64,000 nucleotides of DNA from Candidatus Melainabacteria bacterium 17Bon1m (GTDB lineage: Bacteria; Cyanobacteriota; Vampirovibrionia; Obscuribacterales; Obscuribacteraceae), in the NCBI GenBank assembly GCA_032128875.1, contig JAVLKG010000001.1:352001-416000 (forward strand), given 5' to 3'. Positions within the stretch are counted from its first letter, which is position 1. Each line of letters opens with the position of its first letter. A model generated the notes under the pieces. It did no database searches and was not told where the DNA came from. It saw nothing but the letters and a program-made list of their open reading frames with translations. This document shows, one piece after another, positions 2,788 through 62,312 of this stretch. The translations under genes were made by a program, and so were the position numbers.

Positions 2788-2813
2788 GGTGGACCTCCCA
2801 TAGTGGTGGCGAG

Positions 2814-3035
2814 TTAAAACGAGATGCCGAGGCACCTAGAGTCGGTTATATAGGGATAGGCCAGGAACTCGGTCGGGTTTCCTAAGGCGTATTCTGCCTG
2901 TGCAAGGTCAACCGCTTTCGCGGTTTGCTGTTCTGGTGTTGCTCGGCCATCCGCAAATGGTGGTCCGGGCGGGACACTAGCCGTACCTGTCAGCCAATTT
3001 AATTGGTTGCTTGGGCGGGCGTATTTGTTACCCAA
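2814..3035 (-). CDS. possible small hypothetical protein (73 aa)
   Basis: TTG start with GAGGT upstream, 5 nt after stop of 3041..3202 ORF, ends just before the sulP SD; no recognisable domain. Confidence 0.3.
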   Translation of the reverse strand: MGNKYARPSNQLNWLTGTASVPPGPPFADGRATPEQQTAKAVDLAQAEYALGNPTEFLAYPYITDSRCLGISF

Positions 3036-47695: not shown

Positions 47696-48801
47696 AAAGA
47701 ATTCTGGCTCAGTGTATGAAAGAACTCGCGCAATTCCGGCGCGATCGCCTCACTCTAGCGTTGGCATTTTTCTTGCCGCTGGTGGCGCTTTTGTTGTACG
47801 GATATGCTACGAGGCTGGAAGCGAAAGACATTCCGGTTGCAGTGAAAAATTTCGATAACAGTGCGCTCAGCCGCGACTATCTCGATGCGTTGTTCAATAA
47901 TGGGCAATTAAAGCTTGTTCGCTGGGCGCCTGGTGATGCGATGCGGCAACTTGACCTTGGCGATGCAAAGGCTGCTATCGTTATTCCCCCTGAATTTTCT
48001 CGCAAGATCCGACAGAACATCGCTGCTGATATTCAAGTGCTCGTGGATGGCACCGACGTGAATAACGCCCGCGTTGTGAAGAATAGTATTCTTGCCACCA
48101 CGCAATATTTTGTCCGCTCGCACAAACTAAATCCACCGAATGACAAATCGCTGCTCAAGACTGATGTTCGCTTATGGTTTAATCCGGGCAGAAAAGAGGC
48201 TCTCTATGTCGCACCGGGGGCAGTGGCGATCAACCTTTGGATTTTCCCCTGCCTGCTGGCAGCACTGGCGATGGCACGCGAGCGAGAGTATGGCACGATG
48301 ATGCAGCTCTATACTTCTTCGATTACGTCTTTCCAGCTTGTTGCAGGCAAAGCTCTTGCTTATTGGTTGGTCGGTATGATTCAAGCGGCGATGATGCTGG
48401 CGTTGGCTATTACACTTTTCGGAATTCGCCTGGTTGGAAATGTACCGGTCTACCTGGTGTCACTTTCTGTGTTCATTTTTAGCTCTGTTTTGTTCGGACT
48501 TCTGATGGGGGCTCGCGCGCAGACCCAGAGTGCGGCAGTTCAGATGGTGGCAACTGCAGGTTTTACCACTGCGTTGCTGTTGTCCGGGTTCATTTATCCG
48601 GTGAGAAATATTACCTGGCCACTTTCACTCATATCGTATGTGGTGCCGGCTCGCTACTTCGTGGAGGCCTCTAGAAATGCTTTTGTCCGCGGCAGTGATG
48701 CGCTTAGCCAAATTCAGATTCCTATTTACCTGACGCTCTGCGCGGTGGCCTTTTACTTGATCGCCAGCAGAGTATTGCGCAAGATGCAGATGGACGCATA
48801 A
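47692..48801 (+). CDS. ybhS: ABC-2 permease (YbhS-like)
   Basis: KELAQFRRDR, VDGTD, WFNP, AREREYGT, LLSGFIYP. Confidence 0.88.
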   Translation: MKRILAQCMKELAQFRRDRLTLALAFFLPLVALLLYGYATRLEAKDIPVAVKNFDNSALSRDYLDALFNNGQLKLVRWAPGDAMRQLDLGDAKAAIVIPPEFSRKIRQNIAADIQVLVDGTDVNNARVVKNSILATTQYFVRSHKLNPPNDKSLLKTDVRLWFNPGRKEALYVAPGAVAINLWIFPCLLAALAMAREREYGTMMQLYTSSITSFQLVAGKALAYWLVGMIQAAMMLALAITLFGIRLVGNVPVYLVSLSVFIFSSVLFGLLMGARAQTQSAAVQMVATAGFTTALLLSGFIYPVRNITWPLSLISYVVPARYFVEASRNAFVRGSDALSQIQIPIYLTLCAVAFYLIASRVLRKMQMDA

Positions 48802-48803
48802 TC

Positions 48804-49934
48804 ATGCCTATTGGACCACTAGTTAAAACTACACGGCTGGGTGCTCTTGCGCGCAAAGAAATGCGTCAAATCATGCGCGACAAGCAGCTTATCTTCATAC
48901 TTTTCATGATGCCGCTTATTCAACTATGTATATATGGATATGCGCTTAGTCCGGACGTCAACCATTTGAGAATGGGCGTTGTCGATCATTCTTCGTCGCT
49001 GATCAGTAGAGGATTTATCTCAGCATTAGTTGAAAATGGTGTGTTCGATGTTCTTGACTCAGGCGGAGACGAGAAGACTTTAGGAGCTAAGGTGCGCGGC
49101 GGTAAGTTGGATGTTGGTGTGGTCATTCCTCCTGAATTGGAGCGCAATTACAAGTCTAATAAAGTCACTAATATTCAGGTTTTGCTCGATGGGGTGGATG
49201 CGAATACTGCCGGCATTGCCATGGCATACATAGGGCAGATTGTGATGACTTACGATCGTTTGATTCGAACCGGCTCGCAATTTCCCAACCAGCGAGCTGC
49301 GCCGCAAGTGAGTTTTGTCTACAATCAGGGACTCGTGAGCAACTGGTTTTTCGTACCAGGTGTTATTGCGTTAGTCTTAAATCTGGTTAGCACTCTGGTA
49401 TCAAGTGCAGCAGTCGTCCGTGAAAAGGACTCAGGAACACTCGAACAGTTGCTGATGACACCGGTCAGCTCATTTCAAATCCTGACGGCAAAGATTATCC
49501 CGCTTGCCGTTTTACTACTCATCAATGTTTCTGTCAGCCTGACCCTGAGCACATTCCTCTTTCATGTTCCATTCCGTGGCAATTTGTTTGTTTTCTTCGC
49601 AGTATCACTGCTCTACATAATTGTCGGAATCTCAATTGGGATTTTTCTTGCTGCCGTTAGTGAGAATCAGCGCCAGACGCTTCTAACCTCATTTTTCGTC
49701 AACCTTCCGGTTATTCAGCTTTCCGGTGCGATCTCACCTTTGGAGAGCATGCCACCCTTTTTCCAATGGCTTTCGTTGCTTGATCCGCTGAGATACTACT
49801 GCAGTTGTGTACGCGCAATACTGCTCAAAGGTGCAGGCTTCGAGTCCATATGGCGTGATGTTTTAGCGCTGGCGATCTTTGCTGTTGCACTGCTATGGAT
49901 GAGTTCCACGCGTTTTAGAGAACAGCTCAAATAG
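48804..49934 (+). CDS. ybhR: ABC-2 permease (YbhR-like)
   Basis: DGVDANTA, VVREKDSGTLEQLLMTP, PLESMP. Confidence 0.88.
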   Translation: MPIGPLVKTTRLGALARKEMRQIMRDKQLIFILFMMPLIQLCIYGYALSPDVNHLRMGVVDHSSSLISRGFISALVENGVFDVLDSGGDEKTLGAKVRGGKLDVGVVIPPELERNYKSNKVTNIQVLLDGVDANTAGIAMAYIGQIVMTYDRLIRTGSQFPNQRAAPQVSFVYNQGLVSNWFFVPGVIALVLNLVSTLVSSAAVVREKDSGTLEQLLMTPVSSFQILTAKIIPLAVLLLINVSVSLTLSTFLFHVPFRGNLFVFFAVSLLYIIVGISIGIFLAAVSENQRQTLLTSFFVNLPVIQLSGAISPLESMPPFFQWLSLLDPLRYYCSCVRAILLKGAGFESIWRDVLALAIFAVALLWMSSTRFREQLK

Positions 49935-49943
49935 CGCAACGCT

Positions 49944-50261
49944 CTACAGTTCGTTGAGAGTTTTCTGCAGATCGATCAAGTGATTGTTGAATATCTCTTT
50001 TGCTACGTCCAACAAACGAAAGACAGTTGGATCGCTGCATGAATAGTAAATGTTGTTGCCTTGCTTTCGCGATACGACCAAATTCTTCGAGCGAAGCACG
50101 GCCAGCTGCTGCGAGATATTCGGCAGTTCTACATCCAAACGGTCGCGAATCTCAGAGACTGTTAATTCCTCTGTTCTGAGTTCATCAAGGATTCTTATGC
50201 GCAGCGGATTTGCAAGCGCTTTGAAAAACTCTGCTTTGAAGTTGACGAGTTTGTCTGGCAT
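49944..50261 (-). CDS. ArsR/SmtB family regulator
   Basis: FKAEFFKALANPLRIRILDELR..NISQQLAVLR; start moved to MPDKLV. Confidence 0.92.
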   Translation of the reverse strand: MPDKLVNFKAEFFKALANPLRIRILDELRTEELTVSEIRDRLDVELPNISQQLAVLRSKNLVVSRKQGNNIYYSCSDPTVFRLLDVAKEIFNNHLIDLQKTLNEL

Positions 50262-50556
50262 GGGTCGTTTTCTGGATCTGGAGCTTGTCGTTATCAATAG
50301 TATTCTAGTCCCATGCTTGAAGTAAACGGGCAAATCATCCTGGCGTCCTTTGGCTGCCAAGGTCTGCGCTTTTGCGCTCTGGCTCTAAATTGTCGGGTCA
50401 CCTGTAAGAATCACATAAGGAGCGGTGGGGTTAGGGTTTGTACCGCTCCAAATGTGTTCTTTGGAACTCCCATCAAGCTATTATCAAGATTTACATCTTT
50501 TGAAACCAAGTTGAAAGCAAAGCTTATATGCGTCACCGTCCCGGGTTCCTTTTGCT

Positions 50557-51198
50557 CTAGGGAAGATTTTTAATTAGCTCCGTTGGTACCTTTGAGTCTT
50601 GTGGTAAATTCTTCGCTTCTTCGGCATACCACTTAGGAATGTACAGTCTGCTGTCGTGTAAGCAGACGAATAAAGGAGCAACGGTCAACTTGCGAAAGAC
50701 ATTAGTGAGGCGGATGTACTCTGCCTGCAAAGCATCTAGCTCATCATTGATAGCATGACGGCTAGCTTGTTTTGAAACATATTCTTCGGCAATTTCTGGA
50801 TCCCATCCCTGGTCGATAAAAGCTTGCACTACGGATGGTGCTTTCTCGTAAACCTTGGACATCCCACAATCGTTATGTCCGATCATTATCAAATATTTGA
50901 CGCCTTGTGACAGCGTATATCCGACGCTGAATTCTGAGCCGATTACTCTGCCACTGGCGCGCCGAATAACATATGCGTACATTCGTGGAACAGGAAGCGC
51001 ATAGCGAAACTCGATGCATGTAGCGATCAACAGTTCTACTTTTCCTGTAGATACAATTGGCCATCCAAAATTTTGCGCCATGATGAATGATTCAATTGGA
51101 GTATCTCTCCATGCCTCGGGAATCTCCTCGCGCGACTTAACTTCAATCAAAGACTCTTTGTATTTGTCGTCTGATCGTACTGGAGGAGGAATATTCAT
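50557..51198 (-). CDS. beta-carbonic anhydrase-like protein (CxExR variant)
   Basis: IATCIEFR and IGHNDCG give Cys/His/Cys Zn ligands; start at MNIPPP. Confidence 0.8.
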   Translation of the reverse strand: MNIPPPVRSDDKYKESLIEVKSREEIPEAWRDTPIESFIMAQNFGWPIVSTGKVELLIATCIEFRYALPVPRMYAYVIRRASGRVIGSEFSVGYTLSQGVKYLIMIGHNDCGMSKVYEKAPSVVQAFIDQGWDPEIAEEYVSKQASRHAINDELDALQAEYIRLTNVFRKLTVAPLFVCLHDSRLYIPKWYAEEAKNLPQDSKVPTELIKNLP

Positions 51199-51232
51199 TT
51201 GCGTTTCCAAAGTGGTGTGGTGTGGGTGAGCG

Positions 51233-51853
51233 TTAGTGGCATTCGTCGTCCGGAAATACCCAGAAGCTCTCGGTCTGCGGATCGTATGTTGCGTTTTCCA
51301 TGGTGTCATCATGGTTGATCCATGCATGAAATTTGAGATTGCCTTCCTGCGCTGCTTTCGATATTTTAGGCAGTTTCAGAAGTTCTGAAAGTTCTCTGAG
51401 AACAAAATCTTCAACTGCACGTTGAAAGACGTGTTTGTCGAATTTGTCTCCAAATCTTTCTTTTATGGCATTCCTTGTGCCAGACACTCTGCGAATCACT
51501 TCGTTATATATGTTTGTCGAAGGCCCGTCCGCCGATGGGTCGCTGCGCAAACCAACTTCAATGATTTCGCAGCCGTAGTGCCCATATACGATGACGTCGC
51601 TTATCTGTTTGCTGGCGACAAGGTCTTCGAGCCCTCCGCAGTCGTCAACGCAACCACCGAGGTTTTGCCAGGTGAAGATTGGTAATTTTGGATCTGCTGG
51701 AAATACTGAATTGATGTTGCACATCTCGGAGCAGCAGATTACCGCCACGCCGGTGGAAGTGCCGCCGGTAAGCCTTTTATTGATTTGCGACCGAGAAGTC
51801 GGTTCGATTAGGCGGATCGAAGTTTCGTCAAGAATGCCGGCTAACGTTTTCAT
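51233..51853 (-). CDS. divergent beta-carbonic anhydrase-like protein
   Basis: VICCSEMC, FTWQNLGG, IVYGHYGC, LKFHAW; Asp-Arg dyad absent; start at MKTLAG behind AGGTG. Confidence 0.75.
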   Translation of the reverse strand: MKTLAGILDETSIRLIEPTSRSQINKRLTGGTSTGVAVICCSEMCNINSVFPADPKLPIFTWQNLGGCVDDCGGLEDLVASKQISDVIVYGHYGCEIIEVGLRSDPSADGPSTNIYNEVIRRVSGTRNAIKERFGDKFDKHVFQRAVEDFVLRELSELLKLPKISKAAQEGNLKFHAWINHDDTMENATYDPQTESFWVFPDDECH

Positions 51854-51913
51854 ATCGACTGAACACCTATGGCGCACGGATACGGTTGTTTGGAATTGTA
51901 ACACTATTAGAGC

Positions 51914-51933
51914 AATTGCGCAATTACGCAAGT
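51914..51933. promoter_or_regulatory. palindromic operator candidate in divergent CA/Ehr promoter
   Basis: TTGCG-caatta-CGCAA, overlapping AATTGCGCAATT. Confidence 0.5.
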
Positions 51934-51981
51934 AGTTTAATACATAATGTTACTAGGCAGGACTTTCGCGGCAGTCTTTGA

Positions 51982-53952
51982 ATGAATTCGCAGGTTGTGT
52001 TTCTGGAGTCATTGTTTCTACTGGTGTCAGCAGCAGTTGCTGCATTTGCTCTTAGTCACAAGAGCCAAGTTTCCGACAAAGCCATGTCATATCTCCTTTG
52101 TGCAATCGCTTCATTCGCGATTGCCGTTTCGTTTTTAGGCGGCGGTCAGATAGTCAGCTATGAAACGAGCGCGCCATTAATGCTCGGCGTGTTTCCCCTG
52201 ACGTTTTTGCTGGACGGGCTGAGCCGATTTTTTGTGGCAATCCTGAGCGCCATCCTCTTTGCCATCGGGCTATTCTCGCCGGGCTATCTTTCGCACTTAA
52301 AAGGAAAGATCTCAGGCGGGCAATATTGGATCGCATTCTTTCTGCTCGCACTTTCGATGTTCGGAGTTGTGTTGAGTGCTGATGCCATCACTTTCATCGT
52401 GATGTGGGAAATTATGTCGCTTTCCTCCGCTGCGCTTGTTGCTAGTGATCACACGCATCAATCAGTGCAGAAAGCTGCTCTAATTTATTTAGGCGCCACT
52501 CGAACAGCTAGTGGCTTGCTGTGCGGCGGCTTTCTATGGATGCACTCTTTGACTGGAAGTTGGAATTTCGCTTCCTGGAATTTCGCGCAGCCTCATGCAA
52601 TTTTTCCTGCCCTGCTTATATTGCTCGGATTTTGTATCAAAGCCGGCGTCTGGCCGTTTCACATCTGGTTGCCTTATACGTACCCTGCTGCACCAGCCAC
52701 CGTGTCTGCCGCGATGAGCGGTTTTTTGGTCAAGCTTCCTATATATGGATTGATTCGAATTCTGATTCAAGGTGGCTTGTCTTCGCCTGAGATTATCAAT
52801 CTTATGTTTGTCTTGGGCGCGATTTCTTCTTTCTGGGGAGTGTTGTTCGCTCTTGTTCAAAACGATTTGAAACGCCTTCTAGCCTATTCGAGTATTGAAA
52901 ACATCGGTCTTATTCTTCTTTCTTTGGCTATTTCTCTAAAAGCCCGCGCTGCCAACTTGCCCTTAATCGCTGACGTGGCGATGGTGGCAGCAATCTTTCA
53001 TTGCCTCAATCATGGCGCAATCAAGTCACTATTATTCCTGTCTGCTGGTGCTGTGGATGCGATGGCGCATTCACGCGATCTCCATCGGTTGGGCGGTTTG
53101 GCGAAGCGGATGCCTTGGACCATGGCGTGTTTTTTCATCGGCGCCTTTTCAATCTGTTCTATTCCGCCTATGAATGGCTTCGCAAGCAAATGGTTGCTCT
53201 ATCAAAGCTTGTTCAAAAGCACCCTACTTTTTGGCTCTTACCTTGATCGCGGTTTGTTTCTCACGGCGATTTGCCTTTTGTCAGCAGTCGGCGCGCTGGC
53301 TATTGCAGTTTTTGTCAAGGCGATGGGTGTCGTCTTCCTTGGCATGAGCAGAAGCCATGCCGCAGAACATGCTGTAGAAGCTAGTCCCGGCATGCTTTGC
53401 GCTCAGGTTCTGCTGGCTGCATGTTGTGCAGGTCTGGGCGTCTTTGCGCCTAACCTGGTCAGTCAAATTACAAAGATCGCATCCTCTTCGACGCGACCAA
53501 TTACCACTGCTCCGATTGATTTCGCGCTGCCAATTCCATTGCTTGCTGGGACATTGTTTGCAACGGGATTGGTTATCTACGTTGTTTTTTTGCAGAGTTC
53601 TAAAGTCCGAACTTTCAAAACGTGGGATTGTGGTTTTGGACCACTAACTCCAAAAACCCAGGCATCGTCTGATTCTTTCGCACAACCGTTGGCTCGCATT
53701 TTTCGCCCGTTTTTGAAATACGAAACGAACGCCACGATATCCGGGCGCGATCGTCGCCATTTCCCAGAACAAATAAATGTCGAAGTAAAAATCGTTTCGA
53801 TACTAGAATCACGCGTTTATTTGCCTTGTCTAGCGGTGATCAGTTATCTCGCAAGAGGACTGGCAAAATTGCAAGCAGGAAGCATTCATCTTTATCTTGT
53901 GTATGTCTGCTCGACACTCATAATCCTTTTGGCACTAGGGACTATTCTATGA
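51982..53952 (+). CDS. hyfB: Ehr/hydrogenase-4 antiporter-like membrane subunit (HyfB-like)
   Basis: WEIMSLSS, KAGVWPFHIWLP, LKRLLAYSSIEN, PPMNGFASKW, WDCGF. Confidence 0.9.
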   Translation: MNSQVVFLESLFLLVSAAVAAFALSHKSQVSDKAMSYLLCAIASFAIAVSFLGGGQIVSYETSAPLMLGVFPLTFLLDGLSRFFVAILSAILFAIGLFSPGYLSHLKGKISGGQYWIAFFLLALSMFGVVLSADAITFIVMWEIMSLSSAALVASDHTHQSVQKAALIYLGATRTASGLLCGGFLWMHSLTGSWNFASWNFAQPHAIFPALLILLGFCIKAGVWPFHIWLPYTYPAAPATVSAAMSGFLVKLPIYGLIRILIQGGLSSPEIINLMFVLGAISSFWGVLFALVQNDLKRLLAYSSIENIGLILLSLAISLKARAANLPLIADVAMVAAIFHCLNHGAIKSLLFLSAGAVDAMAHSRDLHRLGGLAKRMPWTMACFFIGAFSICSIPPMNGFASKWLLYQSLFKSTLLFGSYLDRGLFLTAICLLSAVGALAIAVFVKAMGVVFLGMSRSHAAEHAVEASPGMLCAQVLLAACCAGLGVFAPNLVSQITKIASSSTRPITTAPIDFALPIPLLAGTLFATGLVIYVVFLQSSKVRTFKTWDCGFGPLTPKTQASSDSFAQPLARIFRPFLKYETNATISGRDRRHFPEQINVEVKIVSILESRVYLPCLAVISYLARGLAKLQAGSIHLYLVYVCSTLIILLALGTIL

Positions 53953-54950
53953 ATGACATAAGCACTCATGTTCTTAGAAGCTGCTCTCATTGGATTCTCT
54001 TTGTCTCAAGCATAGTAATACTCCCACCTGTGTGCTTAACACTCATCAGAAAAACCAAGGCTCGCCTGCAAAGTCGAGTTGGTCCGCCGCTTCTTCAGCC
54101 TTTTTACGATTTGATCAAACTTTACCGCAAAAGTGAAACCGTCAGTTCTACGATGTCTGGAGTGTTCAGACTTGCTTCTGTCGCCGGGCTTGCCACCATC
54201 ATTTTGCTTGCCTGGCTGACTCCGTGGCTGTCGTACAAGCCTTGGAGCCCCAGCGCCGATTTATTCCTCATTATTTATCTCTTTGCTCTGGCGCGTGTGT
54301 TCTCTCTTTTAGGCGCGCTGGATTCAGGCTCTGCGTTTGGCGCTTTCGGCGCAAGCAGAGAAGTAACTCTCGGGCTCCTTGTCGAGCCGGCGTTGATGCT
54401 TGGTCTTGTTGCTCTGGGTTTGTTTTGCGGAAGCAGTGACCTGCGAATGATTTTTTCGTACCCTCATGCGATTGGCGTTGGAGCCGCAGCGGTTACTGGT
54501 GCCGCATCTGGTGCCGGAGCCGCCGGCATTTGGCTGCTGGTTGGAATTGCGATTTTGCTGGCGAGCTTAATAGAGCTCTCTCGGATGCCTGTGGACGATC
54601 CAACTACGCACCTCGAGTTGACGATGGTTCATGAGGCCATGGTGCTCGAAGCATCTGGGCGCAATCTGGCGTTAATTGAGTTTGCCCATGCCCTTAGAAT
54701 GAGCATCTTCTTCGGTTTGTCGGCTCAGTGCTTCGTCCATGCACTGGCTTCTGTTTGTCACATCAATACATTGACTCAAGGAATTCTGAGCGTTGTTGGC
54801 ATATGTGGCATCGCAATTTTTGTTGGGGTGCTGGAAAGTCTCGCGGTCAAATTGCAGTGGCGGAAAGTTCCTGAATTCGTCGCTTATGTCGTCTCGATGA
54901 GCCTCCTTGCAGCTTTTGTCGCAGCCGGAAGTGGAGGCATCAAATTATGA
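53949..54950 (+). CDS. hyfC: NuoH-like membrane subunit (HyfC/HycD-like)
   Basis: RVGPPLLQPFYDLIKL, RMPVDDPTTHLELTMVHEAMVLE; ATGA overlap with hyfB. Confidence 0.9.
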   Translation: MNDISTHVLRSCSHWILFVSSIVILPPVCLTLIRKTKARLQSRVGPPLLQPFYDLIKLYRKSETVSSTMSGVFRLASVAGLATIILLAWLTPWLSYKPWSPSADLFLIIYLFALARVFSLLGALDSGSAFGAFGASREVTLGLLVEPALMLGLVALGLFCGSSDLRMIFSYPHAIGVGAAAVTGAASGAGAAGIWLLVGIAILLASLIELSRMPVDDPTTHLELTMVHEAMVLEASGRNLALIEFAHALRMSIFFGLSAQCFVHALASVCHINTLTQGILSVVGICGIAIFVGVLESLAVKLQWRKVPEFVAYVVSMSLLAAFVAAGSGGIKL

Positions 54951-55594
54951 TTTCTGCGATCAACCTTTGTGTTCTTTGCGCAGCGGTGCTTGCCTGCCTG
55001 ATGGTCGGGTCTTTGCACTTGAGGCTCAATCTATTTCTGTACGGGGTAGAAACGCTCTTTATCGCAGCTGCAACAGTTCTCACTGCCAATGCCCATGGGG
55101 ACGCGAGCCTGATCTGCATTGCGATGATGATTGGAACTTTGAAAGCTTTAGGAGTTCCTTTTTTCCTGCTCAAAACCAGCGAGAAGCTGAATGTTCATCG
55201 CGATGTCGGTGCGATGATTACGCCACCGTTGGCAATGCATTTGTCTATTGTTCTTTTCGCTTTGAGTTTTGTTTTGACTCAAAATATTCCCACACCGCAG
55301 TTGGTGGTCAACGGCTGGTATGGAGCTGCTGCAGGTATTTCGCTTCTTTTCACCGGTCTTGTCATTATGCTGACCAGGAGATTGGCTATCGGGCAGATTC
55401 TCGGTTTTCTCGTAATTGAAAACGGTATCTATGTGTTTGCGCTCACCCAGACGCTCGGTATGCCAATGCTCGTCGAAATGGGAATTTTGCTGGACATGCT
55501 CGTTGGCGTTATGGTGTGTGGGGTTTTGGTGTTCAAAATTCAAAAGAGTTTTGAACACATCGATGTCGCACTTCTTACTGATTTGAAGGAGTGA
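54947..55594 (+). CDS. hyfE: HyfE-like membrane subunit
   Basis: QILGFLVIENGI, MPMLVEMGILLD. Confidence 0.9.
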   Translation: MISAINLCVLCAAVLACLMVGSLHLRLNLFLYGVETLFIAAATVLTANAHGDASLICIAMMIGTLKALGVPFFLLKTSEKLNVHRDVGAMITPPLAMHLSIVLFALSFVLTQNIPTPQLVVNGWYGAAAGISLLFTGLVIMLTRRLAIGQILGFLVIENGIYVFALTQTLGMPMLVEMGILLDMLVGVMVCGVLVFKIQKSFEHIDVALLTDLKE

Positions 55595-55595
55595 G

Positions 55596-57032
55596 ATGGA
55601 GCTTTTCTTCACCCTTTGTGCTTTACCTGTATTTGGTGCCATCTGGGCAGCGAAGTGCCGGCACCTTGAAAAAGTGCGTAGCTCCGTCACCTTGCTCATC
55701 TGGCTTCAGGTTATTGCTACCGCAATTTTGATTGGACCGCTTCTGCGCGGTGATGCTTCGCTGCTTAGATTCACAGCCGACTTTGCTCTGGATAGAAGTG
55801 CTGCTTGCTTTTTGTTGTTGACCAATTTTGTCGCAGCTTGCTCGCTTACTCATGCTCCTACTTTCTTTCGCAATGAGAGTGTGATTGCAGGCAAAATTAT
55901 TCCGCCGTTGCACGAACGCTTTTTCTATGTGTCTTCTCTGCTTTTCGTTCTTGCTATGAATTTTGTCTTTATGGCGGACAATCTCGGACTCCTCTGGGTG
56001 AGCATTGAGGCTACAACCATTTTCTCTGCTGGGCTTGTCTATTTTTCGCGAGACAAACATGCATTGGAGGCGACTTGGAAATACTTGATGGTATGCAGCG
56101 TCGGCATCGCATTTGCATTGTTGGGAACGATTTTGATCTTCGCATCGAGCCAGCATGGTGCCATTGATGGCGGGTCGTTAAACGTAAGAATGTTGATTGG
56201 CTGTGCGGGGCGCCTCGAGCCAAAACTATTAGAGCTCGGCTATATCTTTTGCTTGCTGGGCTACGGCACCAAAGCCGGCATTTTCCCTCTCCACACGTGG
56301 CTGCCCGACGCGCATTCTGAAGCGCCTGCTCCTGCATCTGCCATGCTGTCCGGGGCACTTCTCAACTGTGCGCTCTTCGCGATTTGGCGTGTTACAGAAC
56401 TAGTAAAACTTACAGAGCATCACGCTATTTGCGAATCAATTCCTATTTTCTGGGGCGCGCTCACGGCATTGGCCGCGGGGTTATTTCTTGTGCACCAGTA
56501 TGGTATCAAGAGGCTTTGGGCGTATTCGAGCATTGAAAATGTCGGAATAATGCTGGTTGCGATTGGGCTTGGATCGCCCATGCTATTTTTTCTCCAAGCG
56601 CTTAATCACAGTATTGCAAAGGTCGCCTTATTTCTTCTGTCGGGAAATATAATTCAATATTTTGGCACCAAAGATCTCAGCAAGATACGCGGACTATTAA
56701 AAGTCAGTCCGACATGCGGCATTCTCTTGGCGGTCTGCGCTGCAGCTGTTACGGGCATGCCTCCCTTTGGTGCTTTCATTGCAGAGTGGTTGATTCTTGC
56801 AAAATCTGCTGATGCGATGCAAGGAATCTCTGTCGCTATTCTGCTCATCGCTCTTGCGATTAGCTTTGTCGCTGTCAGTATTCACGTCTCTCGAATTCTC
56901 TGGGGCTCTGCAAAGCCGGAATTGACTCAATCGAGATCAATCTCTCGATACCTCATTCCTTCGATTCTTGGAATTTGTACCATTGTGCTCGGTTTGACGG
57001 CAGTTCCTTTGATTTTGGTAAAACCTCTATGA
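55596..57032 (+). CDS. hyfF: HyfF-like antiporter-like subunit
   Basis: WVSIEATT, ALEATWKY, GYGTKAGIFPLHTWLPDAHSEAP. Confidence 0.92.
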   Translation: MELFFTLCALPVFGAIWAAKCRHLEKVRSSVTLLIWLQVIATAILIGPLLRGDASLLRFTADFALDRSAACFLLLTNFVAACSLTHAPTFFRNESVIAGKIIPPLHERFFYVSSLLFVLAMNFVFMADNLGLLWVSIEATTIFSAGLVYFSRDKHALEATWKYLMVCSVGIAFALLGTILIFASSQHGAIDGGSLNVRMLIGCAGRLEPKLLELGYIFCLLGYGTKAGIFPLHTWLPDAHSEAPAPASAMLSGALLNCALFAIWRVTELVKLTEHHAICESIPIFWGALTALAAGLFLVHQYGIKRLWAYSSIENVGIMLVAIGLGSPMLFFLQALNHSIAKVALFLLSGNIIQYFGTKDLSKIRGLLKVSPTCGILLAVCAAAVTGMPPFGAFIAEWLILAKSADAMQGISVAILLIALAISFVAVSIHVSRILWGSAKPELTQSRSISRYLIPSILGICTIVLGLTAVPLILVKPL

Positions 57033-58507
57033 AACTCGAGCGCGACAATGTCAAACTTGACGAGCGGATCGATACGCTCCGCCCGCTCTTGCACCAGAGT
57101 GGCAATCGCCTTGGATTGATATCGTCAATCGACGGTAAACAACTGATTTCACTTTTGCTCAATACCTCAGAGAACAGAGCCGTTTGCTGGGAAAGTCCTT
57201 TGCAAACGAATCGCTATCATTCATTAGCTCCCGTAATTTCGCAGGCTCATTGGTTCGAGCGAACTTTGTGGGATATGTTTGGACTCGAGCCGGAAAATCA
57301 TCCGCGCTTGAAGCACAACCTGCTGCACGAAGCTTATTCAACCGATCTCATTCCCTTGTTGGCTGAAGAATCGGTGTCGTCAAATGGCAAGCCGCGAGAA
57401 TACTTGCCGATGGCGGTGAAGGGCGATGGAATTTACGAGATTCCGGTCGGACCAATCCATGCTGGGATTATCGAGCCCGGGCACTTTCGCTTTAGTTGTT
57501 TGGGCGAAGTGATTTTCAATCTGGAAATCAGGCTTGGATATGTGCACCGCGGCGTCGAGAAGAGAATGTGCGAGCTGCCGTGGCGCAAGATGCGATTTCT
57601 GGCAGAAGCTGCCGCGAGCGACAGCGCCGCCGCTTATGCTCTTGCGCATTCGATAGCGGTGGAAAGTTGTTTTGATGTTGCAGTCTCTTACAAAGCTGAT
57701 TTTCTGCGAACGATATCACTCGAGATTGAAAGAATTGCCATGCATATCAATGATCTTGGCGGGCTGGCAGGAGACATTGGATTTCTCGCCATATCTTCAA
57801 CGATGGGCAGACTCAGAGGCACTGCTCTTTCCATGGCAGAGCAGTTGACCGGAAGCCGACTCCAAAGAGGCTTTATCTGCCCTGGAGGTGTGGTCTTTGA
57901 TCCGAGCGATAAATTGAAGAGTATCAAAGCTACGGCGAATTGGTTGAGAAAGGAGCTAAAACCAGTCATCTCATTTTTTATGTCTAATGAAGTTGTTCGC
58001 GATCGTATGGAAAATGTCGGAAAGGTATCGCCTCGTCTTGCCGCTGATTTCGGACTCGTTGGCCCTGCAGGCAGAGCCAGCGATCAGAAGTATGATGCGC
58101 GCCATCATTTTGTGCACGGAGTATATCCGAGGGTTCGTGTGCCGATTGCGATGGAAATTGGTGGTGATGTTCTCAGTCGTGCAAAGGTGCGTATTGCCGA
58201 ACTCGAATCGAGCCTCTTTCTCGTAGAACAACTGATTGATGGTCTTCCTGAAGGCGACGTTTGCACTAAATTGCCTGATGCACTGCCGAACAACGCATCT
58301 GGAATCGGAATAGTCGAATCTCACAGAGGTGAGCTGATTCATTTGATCTTCACCGATTCACAAGGGCAGTGCTGCCGCTATGCCATTAAAGATGCAAGTG
58401 TCAATAATTGGACTGGCTTGGCAATCGCAGTGCGAAACAATCTTGTCTCTGACTTTCCGCTGTGCAACAAAAGCTTCGGCTTGTCGTACAGCGGTCATGA
58501 CCTGTGA
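57029..58507 (+). CDS. hydrogenase-4 large-subunit homolog (NuoC+NuoD-like) lacking NiFe ligands (Ehr large subunit)
   Basis: VGPIHAGIIEPGHFRF, LGYVHRGVEK; L1 position reads AEAAASDS and C-terminus KSFGLSYSGHDL, with no CxxC motifs. Confidence 0.92.
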   Translation: MKLERDNVKLDERIDTLRPLLHQSGNRLGLISSIDGKQLISLLLNTSENRAVCWESPLQTNRYHSLAPVISQAHWFERTLWDMFGLEPENHPRLKHNLLHEAYSTDLIPLLAEESVSSNGKPREYLPMAVKGDGIYEIPVGPIHAGIIEPGHFRFSCLGEVIFNLEIRLGYVHRGVEKRMCELPWRKMRFLAEAAASDSAAAYALAHSIAVESCFDVAVSYKADFLRTISLEIERIAMHINDLGGLAGDIGFLAISSTMGRLRGTALSMAEQLTGSRLQRGFICPGGVVFDPSDKLKSIKATANWLRKELKPVISFFMSNEVVRDRMENVGKVSPRLAADFGLVGPAGRASDQKYDARHHFVHGVYPRVRVPIAMEIGGDVLSRAKVRIAELESSLFLVEQLIDGLPEGDVCTKLPDALPNNASGIGIVESHRGELIHLIFTDSQGQCCRYAIKDASVNNWTGLAIAVRNNLVSDFPLCNKSFGLSYSGHDL

Positions 58508-58516
58508 GGTGTCTGC

Positions 58517-59287
58517 ATGCTGAGACTTTTGGGTTTTCTTTTAAATCAAAGCGTAGTCACATCAAAGGACTACTGCTCGCCATCTGTAGATTCTCTTGGA
58601 TTGCCTTCTTTAGGTAATCAAACTTGCATCGGCACGAGTTGCACACAATGCAGCGCTGTCTGTCCAACCGACGCGATTGCAGTGGCTGACTGCTCTAACG
58701 GCGGCAACGTCTCCCTTGACCTCGGCGCTTGCATCGGCTGCGGTGAATGCATAAGAGCGTGTCCGGAAGGGACTTTGGTGGCAAACAAAAATCCGTCGGT
58801 GGCGCGATTTAAGCGGGAAGACTTGATTATCTCAAATGTTGAAAAACGGCAAACGCAAGAAGCATCAATTGAGCCGAGTATATTCGCCAGGTCTATAGCG
58901 TGCCGTGTTGTGTCTACCGGATGCAGCGCCTGCGATCTTGAAGTTGCCGCCTGCGGAAACTCGATCTTCGATATGGAGCGATACGGCATAAATGTTGTCG
59001 CTTCTCCTCGCTTTGCCGATGTTCTTCTTGTCACTGGTCCAGTCCCTAAGGCTATGCACGAAGCTCTCAAATCCTGCTATGAGCAGATGGCGGAACCAAG
59101 ACGTGTAATTGCTGTAGGCACATGTGCAATTTCCGGAGGATTGCATAAAGGTGGCTATGCAGAAGCAAATGGAGTGGAAAGTTTATTGCCCGTCGATCTG
59201 TTTATTCCTGGATGTCCGCCGCATCCCTGGAGCATCATCGACGGTATTAGAAAAGTGATGAGCGGTTCTGTCGAGCGGGGTGCTTAA
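58517..59287 (+). CDS. 2x[4Fe-4S] ferredoxin fused to NuoB-like small subunit (HyfH+HyfI-like)
   Basis: CTQCSAVCP, CIGCGECIRACP; GCSACDLE, ASPRFAD, GTCA, PGCPP. Confidence 0.92.
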   Translation: MLRLLGFLLNQSVVTSKDYCSPSVDSLGLPSLGNQTCIGTSCTQCSAVCPTDAIAVADCSNGGNVSLDLGACIGCGECIRACPEGTLVANKNPSVARFKREDLIISNVEKRQTQEASIEPSIFARSIACRVVSTGCSACDLEVAACGNSIFDMERYGINVVASPRFADVLLVTGPVPKAMHEALKSCYEQMAEPRRVIAVGTCAISGGLHKGGYAEANGVESLLPVDLFIPGCPPHPWSIIDGIRKVMSGSVERGA

Positions 59288-59818
59288 ATGAGTGCAAGAG
59301 AATACCTTGTCGAAGAAAGCCTGCGTGACGGGCGAGTTGTAACGGTGCAACGAGTCAAGCCTGATGAACCTGATACGCGTGAGCAAGACTCTTATTCTCT
59401 AAGTCGAAGTGCTTTGTTTCATAAGTTCTTGATGCCCGATCGCGAACTGGACGAACGGGAACTGATCGCCTTTACCGATAGTAATTTATTCCAGCAGACA
59501 GCGCTCTTCTTGTGCGTTGAGTCGGATGGAAAGCCCGTACCTGTTGGATGCGGGCAATACGTGAGAAACAATCGGCCTGATACTTCAAGTAGTGCGGAAT
59601 TGACAATTGGAGTTAGTGCTGATTATCCACGGACCGAACTTAAAGCGATCTTGCTTCGGCACCTGATCAAACTTGCTAAATCTGAAGGCGTGACAGCTTT
59701 CACCACCGCTTATCCAGCGAATTCGATTGTACTATTTGATGCCCTTCGCGAGATTGACCAAAGCGTCATCTCGGTCTATGCAGCAGGAGCCTTTAGTTTG
59801 CTCCTGCCGATTTCATAG
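59288..59818 (+). CDS. degenerate GNAT-fold protein
   Basis: LRDGRVVTVQRV..LS..F, VGCGQYVR, AELTIGV; acetyl-CoA-binding GxG motif missing. Confidence 0.7.
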   Translation: MSAREYLVEESLRDGRVVTVQRVKPDEPDTREQDSYSLSRSALFHKFLMPDRELDERELIAFTDSNLFQQTALFLCVESDGKPVPVGCGQYVRNNRPDTSSSAELTIGVSADYPRTELKAILLRHLIKLAKSEGVTAFTTAYPANSIVLFDALREIDQSVISVYAAGAFSLLLPIS

Positions 59819-59823
59819 AGCTG

Positions 59824-60285
59824 CTACCCACTCACGTGCTCGCTAACCTGGTGGCATTGCGCTGCTTTTTCGCAGAGTGGAACTGAAGATGTTGGCTGTG
59901 CCAGGATGTCTTCGATGTTTGTTTCCGCAAAGCTCTTTTCGATAATCGCAGTTGCATCGTCAATTTTCTTGTGCAACGCACACAGGTTCGAGCCATGAGT
60001 TTCCAATCCTAGAGGGCAGGACCTTATTCGTTCAATCGGATCTACAGCCTGCAAAATTTCCAATGCAGTGATTTCTTTTGGTTGTTTGGCAAGGGCAAAT
60101 CCGCCACCACAACCTCTTTGGGATTGTACGAGGTTTGCCCTTACCAGCGCCTGCATTACCTTTGACAGGTACGCAGGCGGAACCTTTGTAGCTGCCGCAA
60201 TTTGTTTTGTTGTAAACGCAGTGGTTCTATTCATTGCTAAAAATACAATCGCACGAAGTGCGTATTCTGCGGTATGGGAAATCAC
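59824..60285 (-). CDS. Rrf2 family regulator
   Basis: TAEYALRA, YLSKV, SQRGCGGGF, SCPLG..LCALH. Confidence 0.93.
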   Translation of the reverse strand: MISHTAEYALRAIVFLAMNRTTAFTTKQIAAATKVPPAYLSKVMQALVRANLVQSQRGCGGGFALAKQPKEITALEILQAVDPIERIRSCPLGLETHGSNLCALHKKIDDATAIIEKSFAETNIEDILAQPTSSVPLCEKAAQCHQVSEHVSG

Positions 60286-60298
60286 GGCTCTTTATCCT

Positions 60299-61285
60299 TT
60301 ATAAGACTGCTTGTGTCTGCTTTGCATTGCTACCAGCTGAATTGAATAGCTCAAGTGCTCTCGGGAAAAGAATGTTGTTTTCCTTGTGCACGTGTTGATG
60401 CATTTCCGATTCGAGCTGAGCAAGCGAGCACAAAAGCAGTTTGTATGTGCTGCATGCATCTGCCGGAGCAGTGAACGAATTGGTTAGATGACGCATTCGA
60501 CTCAGCTCAGCGCCTGCGTCGTCATGCTCTTTCGTCATCATGGCGATTGGATGTTCAAGTCCGTTACCGCAGCCGGCATATTTCGCCTGCTTCGACTCGA
60601 TAGCGCAAATGCTGGGAAACAAAATCAATTCTTCCTTCTGCATATGCATCTCTTGCTCTTCTTTGAAGCGAGCAAACAGTTCCTGGATCTCGATCATCTC
60701 AGGATGCCTTCGTCCATGAACTCTGGCTACTTTCTCTGTAAGCGCTTGAATACGGCTCAATTCCAATCGCATTGGATTGTGATAACCAGAGACAAGATGC
60801 TCAGTTAAATCCTTCAGGCTCGAGCGCTTCCAATCTTGCTCGCCATTTATATTTGTTTGTGTTTGCGATGCGACCTTCAAATCGCTCAAAACCTCGTCGA
60901 CGTTTACGCCTCGTCTTTTGCAGGCTTCCGCCAAGGTTGCTTTGCCTCCGCAACAAAAATCAATTCCGTATTGCTCTAGAGTGCACGCACAAGCAGGAAA
61001 CTCCGCGACGATTTCGCCGACCATAGATTCGCTGGTAATGCGAAAATTCGCTGCGTTTACTTCTGCCTTTGTCTTTGCGTGCGGGACGCAAGTTTGCTCG
61101 TAGACAGCGAGACTTACGCAAGAGCATGGCTGAAACATATCTTTTTGAGAACCGCATTCCGGGCAATTCCACTCGTCTGGCAAGTCTTCGAATTTGACTG
61201 AGGGAGCAAGATTTTGCCTTGGTTCGCCTATTGTTTCGTCATAAATGTAATTGCATACTGTGCAAATTGTTTTAGCTTTAGACAT
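60299..61285 (-). CDS. ric: rubredoxin fused to RIC (YtfE/ScdA-type iron-centre repair di-iron protein)
   Basis: CTVCNYIYD..WNCPECG; GIDFCCGG; HMQKEELILFP, EHD, HVHKENNILFP; GGAGG SD before MSKAK. Confidence 0.92.
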   Translation of the reverse strand: MSKAKTICTVCNYIYDETIGEPRQNLAPSVKFEDLPDEWNCPECGSQKDMFQPCSCVSLAVYEQTCVPHAKTKAEVNAANFRITSESMVGEIVAEFPACACTLEQYGIDFCCGGKATLAEACKRRGVNVDEVLSDLKVASQTQTNINGEQDWKRSSLKDLTEHLVSGYHNPMRLELSRIQALTEKVARVHGRRHPEMIEIQELFARFKEEQEMHMQKEELILFPSICAIESKQAKYAGCGNGLEHPIAMMTKEHDDAGAELSRMRHLTNSFTAPADACSTYKLLLCSLAQLESEMHQHVHKENNILFPRALELFNSAGSNAKQTQAVL

Positions 61286-61311
61286 GATGACCTCCACCGC
61301 TTCTTCACTTT

Positions 61312-61327
61312 TGGACCTCTGTGTCCA
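61312..61327. promoter_or_regulatory. putative Rrf2 operator
   Basis: TGGAC-ctctgt-GTCCA palindrome ~30 nt upstream of ric. Confidence 0.5.
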
Positions 61328-61473
61328 GATTAGCTCTTTGCGGCAAGTCTTCTATCGTTCTCAGGTATGATTTCGCAGCAATGCCCATTGAGCGAATTAA
61401 GCATGGAAGAAAATGGGCACATCCTCGCTTTTGCTCAAGCGGCGTGAAAGTAGTTTTTTACCAGAGAGCAAAA

Positions 61474-62292
61474 CTATTTCGCTTCTTTGGGCAAGGTCAG
61501 CAAGTATGAGCGAATATCATCGGCTTCTTTGTCTGAAAGACCGGTTGCTTGTTTTTTCATGACTGGGGAAGAAACCACCCCTTTCAATATTTTTTGTATG
61601 TCATTTTCACTTAATCGCGAACCTAAGCCGGCAAGGTCTGGTCCAAAGCGATCTTTCGTCCCATCAAGCGAGTGGCAGGCCGCGCAACCCAAACCGAAAA
61701 ATAACTCTTTGCCTCTTTGCGATGCTGCACTTGGTGCGCTCGCTTTCCAATCTTTTGAAAGTACATGCTGAACCTTCTCGACTTTGTGGTGAGATACGGA
61801 AAAACCACCTTTAGGTTCGGCAAGCGTCAGAAGATAGTCGGCTATCTGTTCTGCCTGAGCGTTGGTCAGCCCGGGGTGGGGCATGATGTTGCTTCTTTCT
61901 TTTAGGATTGTTGGAAAGGATTTGTAAACTCTATCGGGATCACTGAGATGAGCTACCAGCCACGTCCTGCCTCTGTAGGCTCCGATTCCGTCCAAAGGTG
62001 GTCCTAATTCACCTCCAATTCCTGCCACCGCATGGCACTGCATGCAATCAAGCTGCTTGTATATAAGCAAACCGTTACGACTGCTGCTATTTGCTTTTTT
62101 GGGTTTGTATCCTGTTGCCGGAAAGTTGTAGCGCTTGATAGTGCCGGCGCACTGATCATCTTCACTTTGAGCGTCACTTATCGGTTTTATCGCGTTAGGA
62201 AAACCGGGCAGTGCATGAGCGTGGTCATTGCATAGAGTTGCGATTGCGATTGCAACCAAAGAGGTCAAAATTCGCACAAATGGCTGCTTCAT
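61474..62292 (-). CDS. exported di-heme c-type cytochrome
   Basis: Signal peptide (AHA); CMQCH and CAACH, each followed by GPxL and a distal Met; start at MKQPF. Confidence 0.88.
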   Translation of the reverse strand: MKQPFVRILTSLVAIAIATLCNDHAHALPGFPNAIKPISDAQSEDDQCAGTIKRYNFPATGYKPKKANSSSRNGLLIYKQLDCMQCHAVAGIGGELGPPLDGIGAYRGRTWLVAHLSDPDRVYKSFPTILKERSNIMPHPGLTNAQAEQIADYLLTLAEPKGGFSVSHHKVEKVQHVLSKDWKASAPSAASQRGKELFFGLGCAACHSLDGTKDRFGPDLAGLGSRLSENDIQKILKGVVSSPVMKKQATGLSDKEADDIRSYLLTLPKEAK

Positions 62293-62312
62293 TACTTCCC
62301 TCGCTTGCTCGA

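Follow-up and report, generated by a model that had tools for sequence, protein, structure and literature searches.

In the DabAB/MpsAB systems, which also occur in heterotrophs, a protein resembling beta-carbonic anhydrases is paired with a NuoL/MrpA-like proton-conducting subunit for the energised hydration of CO2. Many other bacteria and archaea carry Ehr complexes, which are built like hydrogenases. The hosts named for them are Geobacter, ammonia-oxidising archaea, comammox Nitrospira, Margulisbacteria, Saganbacteria and Melainabacteria (PMC6349859, PMC10432482, PMC7894505). Ehr has had no assigned substrate since it was named (PMC6349859, PMC10432482, PMC7894505) and its role is stated to be unknown (PMC10432482, PMC7894505). 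Four Melainabacteria genomes, including BJ4A, are listed as encoding it (PMC6349859). Here we analyse a stretch of 64,000 nucleotides, called the window, from Candidatus Melainabacteria bacterium 17Bon1m (Obscuribacterales; contig JAVLKG010000001.1, positions 352,001 to 416,000). According to open reading frame (ORF) calls, Pfam matches and translations, the locus of interest in the window holds ten genes: a tightly packed operon of six Ehr-type genes and a GNAT acetyltransferase gene on the plus strand and, divergently oriented, two carbonic anhydrase (CA)-like genes, CA1 and CA2, with a gene for an ArsR-family regulator on the minus strand (Table 1). CA genes of several lineages recur beside Ehr operons in related genomes. 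On the basis of this gene neighbourhood we propose with moderate confidence that Ehr, acting as a redox-driven ion pump, and the CAs are used jointly in the handling of CO2 and bicarbonate and, on balance, we also regard the locus as probably one regulatory and functional unit.

Carbonic anhydrase genes beside Ehr operons

To collect Ehr loci, we used every large-subunit match at E<=1e-119 (families f1 and f2) among the matches listed for a class sample of 401 genomes. Up to 20 kb around each match were taken, which together with the window gave 103 loci from 98 genomes and 35 genera; weaker matches, for example G172, G236, G272 and G296, were left out. ORFs were called crudely as the longest frames of at least 80 aa after removal of overlaps and labelled by BLAST and three custom hidden Markov models. 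The CA label was given at 90 bits or more, and two matches of 20 and 24 bits were dropped. A locus was taken as assessable when it contained the complete operon flanked on either side by two or more ORFs. This left 78 loci, all from Obscuribacterales, in which neighbours were counted within four ORFs of the operon.

The first-pass annotation of the window had suggested looking for beta-CA genes beside Ehr in other genomes, and the link stood up to that survey: a beta-CA-type neighbour was present in 33 of the 78 loci (in 13 of the 35 genera, counted over all 103 loci), and in 21/78 a gene for a SulP transporter (PF00916) was found instead. No locus combined CA with SulP, and 54/78 had one or the other. 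CA2-type proteins were encoded in 21/78 loci, ordinary beta-CAs of the CxDxR type in 15/78 and CA1-type proteins in 11/78. CA1 is the less constant partner, and Ehr can have a CA2-type or an ordinary beta-CA as its sole CA neighbour. An ArsR homologue was a neighbour in 39/78. In eleven loci from four genera, the CA gene lies on the same strand as the Ehr operon, past the small-subunit gene and separated from it by 36-363 bp. When neighbour families were counted by genera over the 103 loci, ArsR occurred in 19, beta-CA in 13 and 7, response regulators in 11, SulP in 10, an unnamed secreted protein of 485 aa in 9 and histidine kinases in 8, and no other family was found in more than four.

In a FastTree phylogeny of the large subunit, nearly all loci with SulP and two-component genes fall into one clade of 40 rows, and the loci with ArsR and CA genes are divided between two separate clades, with 19 and 41 rows. 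Because of this separation we distinguish two paralogous types of Ehr locus, and some genomes carry both. Loci of the SulP type have two further conserved genes past the small subunit (L092:12611-14475 and equivalents in nine genera), encoding proteins of ~130 aa and ~485 aa without Pfam or NCBIfam match; the latter has a hydrophobic N-terminus that resembles a signal peptide. A neighbour family of 836 aa (cluster 12) had been suspected to be a SulP-CA fusion, which was ruled out by BLAST.

We also scanned from the side of CA2, using one genome per species, and obtained 80 loci with CA2 relatives. In 27 loci, CA2 shares 60% identity or more with that of the window; Ehr genes accompany 22 of these, and three of the remaining five are cut by contig ends. 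More distant copies occupy 53 loci, of which just two have Ehr genes. In a quick IQ-TREE phylogeny of CA2, one clade of 26 rows contained 24 that were Ehr-linked, and two more linked copies fell into other clades. The arrangement varies: besides the order of the window, in which CA1-CA2-ArsR diverge from hyfB, we found ArsR divergent from hyfB with CA2 on the same strand past the small subunit, ArsR-CA2 convergent on the small subunit, and further layouts. Outside Obscuribacterales, none of the four genomes of other phyla with CA2-like genes had Ehr beside them, and only distant NuoD-like matches were seen; a fifth genome checked for the large subunit, L035, is titled Bryobacterales and belongs to Obscuribacteraceae. 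Records titled Bryobacterales, Proteobacteria or Oculatellaceae (L035, L025, L068, L050) carry CA2 of the Obscuribacterales type, and their titles seem to be mislabelled. Two of them (L025 and L068) have Ehr genes of the Obscuribacterales type alongside CA2.

CA2 relatives are associated with SulP transporters as well. Proteins of ~840 aa with SulP and STAS domains, encoded in the same family of genomes, carry a C-terminal CA2-like domain (31-39% identity). Examples with the ordinary CxDxR motif are L089:1349-3826 and L090:1581-4115 (relatives G144 and G193), and ~50 such fusion frames, roughly 830-900 aa long, came up in a class-wide search. A different family of the class has modules devoid of Ehr (L195-L201), seen in 7/8 loci, in which a divergent SulP gene accompanies a pair of genes for ArsR and a CA2-type protein (~183 aa).

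The Ehr complex: a lost NiFe site and a conserved iron-sulfur chain

Among solved structures the large subunit is most similar to E. coli HycE (7z0s_E, E 1.7e-56), followed by MbhL (4.7e-39), MbsL (3.4e-29) and Nqo4 (5e-27). In the alignment with 7z0s_E, the cysteines that bind the NiFe centre in HycE correspond to A214, S217, S504 and G507 of the 510-residue ORF. Both NiFe CxxC motifs had been reported as missing from the window protein, and their absence extends to all 102 orthologues from Obscuribacterales, in which the four positions are occupied by A/S, T/S/M, S/A and G, and no cysteine is found at any of them. Asp216, located between the first two of these positions, is invariant or nearly so in the 102 orthologues, and a C-terminal DFPxCNKSxxLSYSGxDL stretch is nearly invariant. 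For this reason we regard the pocket, judged from its residues, as remodelled rather than decaying.

The small subunit contains the expected NuoB-like domain but is more than the small subunit that the first-pass annotation had named, since it is fused to a HycF/NuoI-like domain for two [4Fe-4S] clusters. The eight ferredoxin-type cysteines are present in 85-95 of 95 sequences and the NuoB-type cluster cysteines C136, C139, C203 and C233 in 94/95. All twelve are found in the protein of the window. Long invariant motifs and conserved charged residues characterise both antiporter-like subunits. As far as sequence can tell, the complex is of the Ehr type: it is hydrogenase-like, its NiFe site is gone, and three Fe-S clusters and two antiporter-like subunits have been kept. 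Conservation of the Fe-S ligands and of the pocket residues points to selection on Ehr as a redox machine. Pfam did not reveal genes for electron input by FdhF or HycB/HyfA in the operon, and no such family recurs near the 103 loci.

CA1 and CA2

The first-pass annotation had described two genes of beta-CA fold. The fold holds for both proteins, but CA2 is detected by profile and fold comparison only and has no Pfam match. CA1 scores 36.7 bits with Pfam Pro_CA (PF00484), weakly above the cut-off of 25.7. Its motif reads C41-x-E43 ... H92-x-x-C95, with the zinc ligands C41, H92 and C95 invariant in 11/11 aligned sequences. Glu43, which occupies the position of the catalytic Asp, is found in at least 90% of the 11 sequences (Asp in 1/11), and the position of the Arg is variable, so that the Asp-Arg dyad is absent. 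The CA1 model has a mean predicted local distance difference test (pLDDT) value of 84.1, and its top Foldseek match is carboxysomal CcaA (5swc, template modelling (TM) score 0.67).

CA2 matched no Pfam family at E<=0.01, PF00484 included, and no NCBIfam family. A profile of 19 homologues compared with the PDB identified Cab (1g5c, E 8e-6), with CIEFR aligned to CMDSR. Its motif, C61-x-E63-x-R65 ... H108-x-x-C111, is invariant in 19/19 sequences, and the zinc ligands C61, H108 and C111 align to the Cab motifs. Here too the dyad is modified: Glu63 stands in place of Asp and Arg65 is kept, which gives CxExR, not CxDxR. The CA2 model (pLDDT 89.9) matched beta-CAs throughout in Foldseek, with 83 matches at E<=0.001 and the chains of Cab 1g5c at the top (target-normalised TM 0.63-0.74). 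Neither CA1 nor CA2 matched DabA (PF10070) in Pfam. A complex prediction for HyfB with CA2, run without controls, gave a score of 0.00 (mark 0.32), which speaks neither for nor against contact.

The CA2 family is small, with 242 cluster representatives at E<=0.001 among 1.84 billion. In this wider family, 105 of the 113 representatives that cover both motifs have CxDxR...HxxC and 1/113 has the Glu form. By comparison, Glu was found in all 65 stand-alone Obscuribacterales copies examined, and Asp is kept in twelve copies of other phyla and in two SulP-fused domains. The exchange of Asp for Glu is found in two different beta-CA lineages, Cab-type and CcaA-type, at one locus, an apparent convergence.

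The ArsR regulator and a candidate operator

The regulator matched Pfam HTH_20 (43.5 bits) and HTH_5 (36.6 bits) as well as NCBIfam HTH_metalloreg NF033788 (88.4 bits, cut-off 55). Among solved chains, Rv0081 of M. tuberculosis (6jmi, E 1.3e-16) is the nearest to it. The protein has a single Cys, and reading of the sequence gave no alpha3 box like ELCVC, the metal-box motif as defined in bioRxiv 10.1101/465575. Rv0081 is described in the same preprint as being without a metal site and as an autorepressor that acts via an upstream inverted repeat on rv0081-rv0088, which encode a predicted complex of the formate hydrogenlyase type.

The intergenic region between CA1 and hyfB, given as ~130 bp in the first-pass annotation, measures 128 bp and contains a perfect 12-bp palindrome, a candidate operator for ArsR. 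Copies with at most one mismatch within -350..+150 of hyfB were found in 20/42 ArsR-type loci, in 1/25 loci of the SulP/response-regulator type and in 4/20 others, often in pairs 8 bp apart. The host genome contains two exact copies in total; the second was rejected as a member of a regulon, as it sits within an ORF of 1385 aa. In a scan with the sigma-70/terminator consensus, promoter-like sites were fewer than in shuffled sequence and none fell within 51854-51981, and the promoters are therefore deduced from the gene layout. Four runs labelled RNA-Seq were considered as a source of expression evidence and rejected. They contain all sampled words of the stretch, but over window positions 48500-61500 they behave like DNA and may be the source sample: both operons and the space between them are spanned without a break by single error-free contigs, 20-30 kb long.

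The host genome

The genome (7.55 Mb in 35 contigs, 93% complete) yielded no match to Photo_RC or RuBisCO_large, and the nearest CA2 relatives come from records titled Candidatus Obscuribacterales or Melainabacteria. For both reasons we place the host among the non-photosynthetic relatives of Cyanobacteria, a possibility that the first-pass annotation had raised and that the genome bears out. The first-pass annotation had also recorded an absence of hyp maturation genes. This is correct for the window but not for the contig: genes for HypD (C1:433510-434547) and for a NiFe large subunit (C1:443892-445040, a 441-aa frame) lie ~17-28 kb past the window end. A real NiFe hydrogenase with its maturation system is thus encoded, to judge from these genes, close to the Cys-less Ehr, and the hyp genes have no evident business with a large subunit that lacks the cysteines.

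A true DabA (PF10070, 808 bits) is encoded elsewhere in the genome (C3:685011-687254), so that Ehr with CA is not the only candidate carbon pump of this organism. There are four ordinary beta-CA genes and eight SulP-family matches, seven strong and one weak. One of the eight is a SulP-STAS transporter gene of the window (1189-2835, minus strand), ~49 kb upstream of Ehr.

Gene models and flanking genes

The overlapped hyfB-C-E-F, large, small operon read by the first-pass annotation was recovered from ORFs, Pfam matches and translations. Adjacent genes of this operon share 4 nt or are 1 to 9 nt apart (Table 1). Two starts were assigned by inference: that of the hyfC-like gene at M42 of its ORF, which results in a 4-nt overlap with hyfB, and that of the large-subunit gene, which likewise gives a 4-nt overlap with the hyfF-like gene. 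In the long ORF of the HyfC-like protein, conservation starts past residue ~66. The HyfB-like subunit scored 503 bits with NCBIfam 'hydrogenase 4 subunit B', under the cut-off of 667. The designation HyfE follows the operon position and the earlier naming, and the gene is kept at the same operon position in 95 Ehr loci. Motifs of the HyfF-like protein are conserved in 98 orthologues. A GNAT gene downstream of the small subunit was found in just three of the 103 surveyed Ehr loci (that of the window, in genome G000, and those of G246 and G250) and, among the CA2-centred loci, also in L015. The acetyltransferase is not a conserved part of the Ehr system.

Table 1. Genes and sites of the Ehr-CA locus (positions are those of the window).
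Feature	Position	Strand	Evidence or remark
ArsR/SmtB-family regulator, Rv0081-like, 105 aa from M34 of ORF	49944-50261	-	Pfam HTH_20/HTH_5
CA2, 213 aa	50557-51198	-	Cab-type beta-carbonic-anhydrase fold
CA1, 206 aa from M27	51233-51853	-	plant/CcaA-type beta-carbonic-anhydrase fold
Divergent CA1/hyfB intergenic region, 128 bp	51854-51981	.	gene starts as assigned
Perfect 12-bp palindrome AATTGCGCAATT, candidate ArsR operator	51914-51925	.	CA1/hyfB intergenic region
HyfB/NuoL-like antiporter-type membrane subunit, 656 aa	51982-53952	+	Pfam Proton_antipo_M 182 bits
HyfC/NuoH-like membrane subunit	53949-54950	+	Pfam NADHdh 104 bits; start inferred
HyfE-like small membrane subunit, 215 aa	54947-55594	+	no Pfam match; 4-nt overlap
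HyfF/NuoN-M-like antiporter-type subunit, 478 aa	55596-57032	+	Pfam Proton_antipo_M 157 bits
Large subunit, NuoC+NuoD/HycE-like, without NiFe ligands	57029-58507	+	Pfam Complex1_49kDa + Complex1_30kDa; start inferred
Small subunit, 2x[4Fe-4S] ferredoxin domain fused to NuoB-like domain	58517-59287	+	Pfam Fer4 families + Oxidored_q6
GNAT acetyltransferase, abutting small-subunit gene	59288-59818	+	Pfam Acetyltransf_1

Upstream of the locus, window positions 43610-49934 are occupied by a TetR gene followed by genes for HlyD, a double ABC ATPase and two ABC-2 permeases, an efflux-type cluster. Several relatives show it in synteny with the ArsR side of the locus, and it adjoins CA2 paralogues without Ehr linkage as well (L045-L047). 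Just downstream of Ehr (60299-63884, minus strand), a gene for a rubredoxin-ScdA_N-hemerythrin fusion of the iron-centre repair type lies beside a COX1-family gene resembling oxidases and NO reductases. Farther away, at 24484-28760 on the plus strand, a pair of adjacent Ser/Thr protein kinase genes was noted, each encoding ~710 aa.

Possible roles of the Ehr-CA linkage

The scheme for joint handling of CO2 and bicarbonate that follows is our inference with respect to ion pumping, the source and destination of the electrons, whether the CAs are active and which way the reaction runs, the repressor function of ArsR and any contact of CA with Ehr. A dimer of ArsR would bind the palindrome in the 128-bp region and repress both divergent operons until a signal is received. 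Ehr would then accept electrons from a soluble low-potential donor via the fused ferredoxin domain and pass them on to an acceptor in the remodelled pocket, with H+ or Na+ being expelled. Cytoplasmic CA2, together with CA1 where present, would interconvert CO2 and bicarbonate. Removal of protons or the ion gradient produced by Ehr would favour net hydration of CO2 and thereby trap bicarbonate, following the logic of DabAB and NDH-1MS. In the sister type of Ehr locus, with SulP in the place of CA, the ion gradient would drive uptake of an anion such as bicarbonate. As in the first-pass annotation, we infer that the CA pair could be the 'missing catalytic module' of Ehr. Physical docking of CA on Ehr in the manner of DabAB or NDH-1MS is doubtful. 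Equally doubtful is the boldest version of the proposal, in which Ehr, as a redox-driven, complex-I-like pump that has abandoned hydrogen chemistry, would be the engine of a third energised system for inorganic carbon next to DabAB and NDH-1MS, working either with a docked Glu-type beta-CA that traps CO2 as bicarbonate or by SulP-mediated import of bicarbonate.

Several observations weigh against joint CO2/bicarbonate handling. Gene neighbourhood is linkage and gives neither mechanism nor direction. Glu replaces the catalytic Asp in both CAs and CA1 has lost the Arg, and the activity of CA1 and CA2 may, to judge from these residues, be altered, regulated or lost. Neither CA nor SulP is found near Ehr in 24 of the 78 loci, about one third, and in 12/78 CA, SulP and ArsR are all missing. 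None of the NCBIfam cut-offs for BicA, DauA and sulP is reached by the SulP proteins. As the host already possesses DabA and four ordinary beta-CAs, its need for a further carbon system is not obvious. Finally, because the sampled genomes share ancestry, there were fewer independent events than the counts of loci suggest; the diversity of CA lineages and layouts is a stronger argument than the counts.

Of the alternatives, the one that survives best sees Ehr as the membrane part of a system that oxidises formate or another substrate without formation of H2, with CA or SulP hydrating or exporting the CO2 or bicarbonate produced, or buffering protons, so that carbon handling would be housekeeping and not what the complex is for. 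It would fit with E. coli formate hydrogenlyase HycE as the closest solved relative of the large subunit and with the complexes of formate dehydrogenase (FDH) and Ehr that have been proposed in lineages that are siblings of Cyanobacteria, fdhA being present in Melainabacteria BJ4A (PMC6349859). In Geobacter, Ehr subunits were most abundant with formate (PMC7894505), and sensing of formate by Rv0081 has been a speculation of the authors who studied it (bioRxiv 10.1101/465575). However, a complex of FDH with Ehr is still more doubtful for BJ4A according to PMC6349859 itself. The 103 loci did not contain a large recurring unnamed neighbour family fit for formate dehydrogenase, although no search with FDH profiles was made, and the SulP-CA fusions and the SulP-ArsR-CA2 modules devoid of Ehr indicate a carbon theme that is independent of formate. 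We consider a formate-type role unlikely.

Slightly less probable still is a role in pH or ion homeostasis without carbon acquisition, an alternative that the first-pass annotation had also named. The Mrp-like subunits would exchange Na+ and H+ and the CA would provide protons and bicarbonate, for example at alkaline pH. Two antiporter-like subunits with conserved charged residues are what such a system would use, the CA can supply both H+ and bicarbonate, and in one locus (L098) a universal stress protein gene follows ArsR. A pure antiporter, however, needs neither three conserved Fe-S clusters nor a conserved pocket, and SulP in the place of CA suits an anion or carbon theme better than a supply of protons.

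It is improbable that the genes merely inherited their order without any functional coupling. All loci are from one order, with many close relatives among them, and the unrelated ABC-2 efflux cluster is likewise syntenic in several loci. Against this, the linkage outlasts inversion and transposition, as seen in divergent, same-strand and convergent layouts. Moreover, three CA lineages are involved, and the linked CA2 rows come from three separate clades of the CA2 tree. With six beta-CA genes in 7.55 Mb, a rough estimate of the chance of finding one in a neighbourhood of eight ORFs is ~0.6%, compared with the 33/78 observed.

A sulfur theme, with the CAs as hydrolases of carbonyl sulfide or carbon disulfide (CS2), SulP as a sulfate permease, ArsR as a sensor of sulfite or persulfide and Ehr as a sulfane reductase similar to MBS, is very improbable: the matches of CA2 in fold and profile comparison include CS2 hydrolase (3ten/3teo), MBS subunit L (6u8y_L) ranks third among the solved matches of the large subunit, NCBIfam BigR (sulfite-sensing) matches ArsR weakly (55.8 bits, cut-off 155) and an altered active-site residue could mean another substrate, but ordinary beta-CAs with full CxDxR/HxxC motifs occupy the same position in 15 loci, the CS2 hydrolase matches are far weaker than those to Cab, and the ArsR with its single Cys is without the Cys pair that thiol-sensing relatives use.

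The repeated link to CA or SulP, which persists through rearrangement, provides the first concrete hypothesis on Ehr that is open to bench testing, namely redox-energised handling of CO2 and bicarbonate. The parts are well defined: two small soluble enzymes, a regulator with a candidate 12-bp operator, and the contrast between CA-type and SulP-type loci. The regulator ties the locus to the hypoxia-induced rv0081-rv0088 genes of M. tuberculosis, and the linkage bears on how complexes for CO2 uptake originated in the cyanobacterial lineage. Should a third energised system be real, the coupling of a complex-I-like pump to CO2 hydration may predate or parallel the cyanobacterial carbon-concentrating mechanism, given that the host belongs to the non-photosynthetic sister lineage of Cyanobacteria, and the exchange of Asp for Glu would be an adaptation by which the pump's state gates the zinc site. 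Even if the link proved to reflect no more than pH control or the handling of a product, the physiological setting of Ehr would be narrowed.

Comparison with known systems

In the literature search, from which supplements were excluded, no publication turned up that connects Ehr with carbonic anhydrase or with the transport of bicarbonate, and the word 'carbonic' is absent from the available main text of PMC6349859. The papers found on Ehr do not mention CA or SulP in its neighbourhood. Known Ehr complexes such as that of Geobacter sulfurreducens (GSU0739-45) share with the complex studied here the group-4-like subunits devoid of NiFe cysteines and the NuoH-like and antiporter-like subunits. 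Their function is considered unknown or is tied to formate (PMC6349859, PMC10432482, PMC7894505), whereas the partners here are CA, ArsR or SulP. One locus of the CA2-centred set (L009), whose CA2 is 99% identical to that of the window, comes from a Melainabacteria record of the BJ4A kind.

The rv0081-rv0088 locus of M. tuberculosis also has an Rv0081-type regulator beside an operon resembling hyc/hyf and a reported upstream inverted repeat (bioRxiv 10.1101/465575). Like Rv0081, the ArsR of the window shows no metal box of the ELCVC type on reading. The position of the regulator differs: it is the first gene of its operon in M. tuberculosis and the last gene of the CA operon here. With E. coli formate hydrogenlyase and Hyf, the complex has in common the best match of the large subunit (HycE, 7z0s), the HyfB-, HyfC- and HyfF-like subunits and the fusion of NuoC and NuoD. 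Unlike in the E. coli systems, NiFe ligands are missing, the operon has no genes for FdhF, HycB and HyfA, the HycF-like and HycG-like parts are fused, and the hyp genes of the organism are located elsewhere, beside a separate NiFe hydrogenase.

Among carbonic anhydrases, CA2 is nearest to Cab (1g5c) and CA1 to CcaA (5swc), with Cys-His-Cys zinc ligands kept. Unlike these enzymes, both have the catalytic Asp replaced by Glu; in CA1 the Arg of the dyad is missing in addition. Fusion transporters of SulP and beta-CA have their counterpart in the CA2 relatives that are fused to SulP-STAS. NDH-1MS/MS' (CupA/CupB on NdhD3/F3) is likewise a machine of the complex I type proposed for CO2 hydration at a zinc site, and it belongs to the sister lineage of the host. 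The Cup proteins are not known to be beta-CAs, and no Cup-type Pfam match was obtained among the proteins of the locus. DabAB/MpsAB resembles the Ehr-CA locus in the pairing of a beta-CA-like protein with a NuoL/MrpA-like subunit and in the proposed logic of energised hydration; it differs in that CA1 and CA2 are not DabA and in that Ehr has a whole redox arm which DAB is without.

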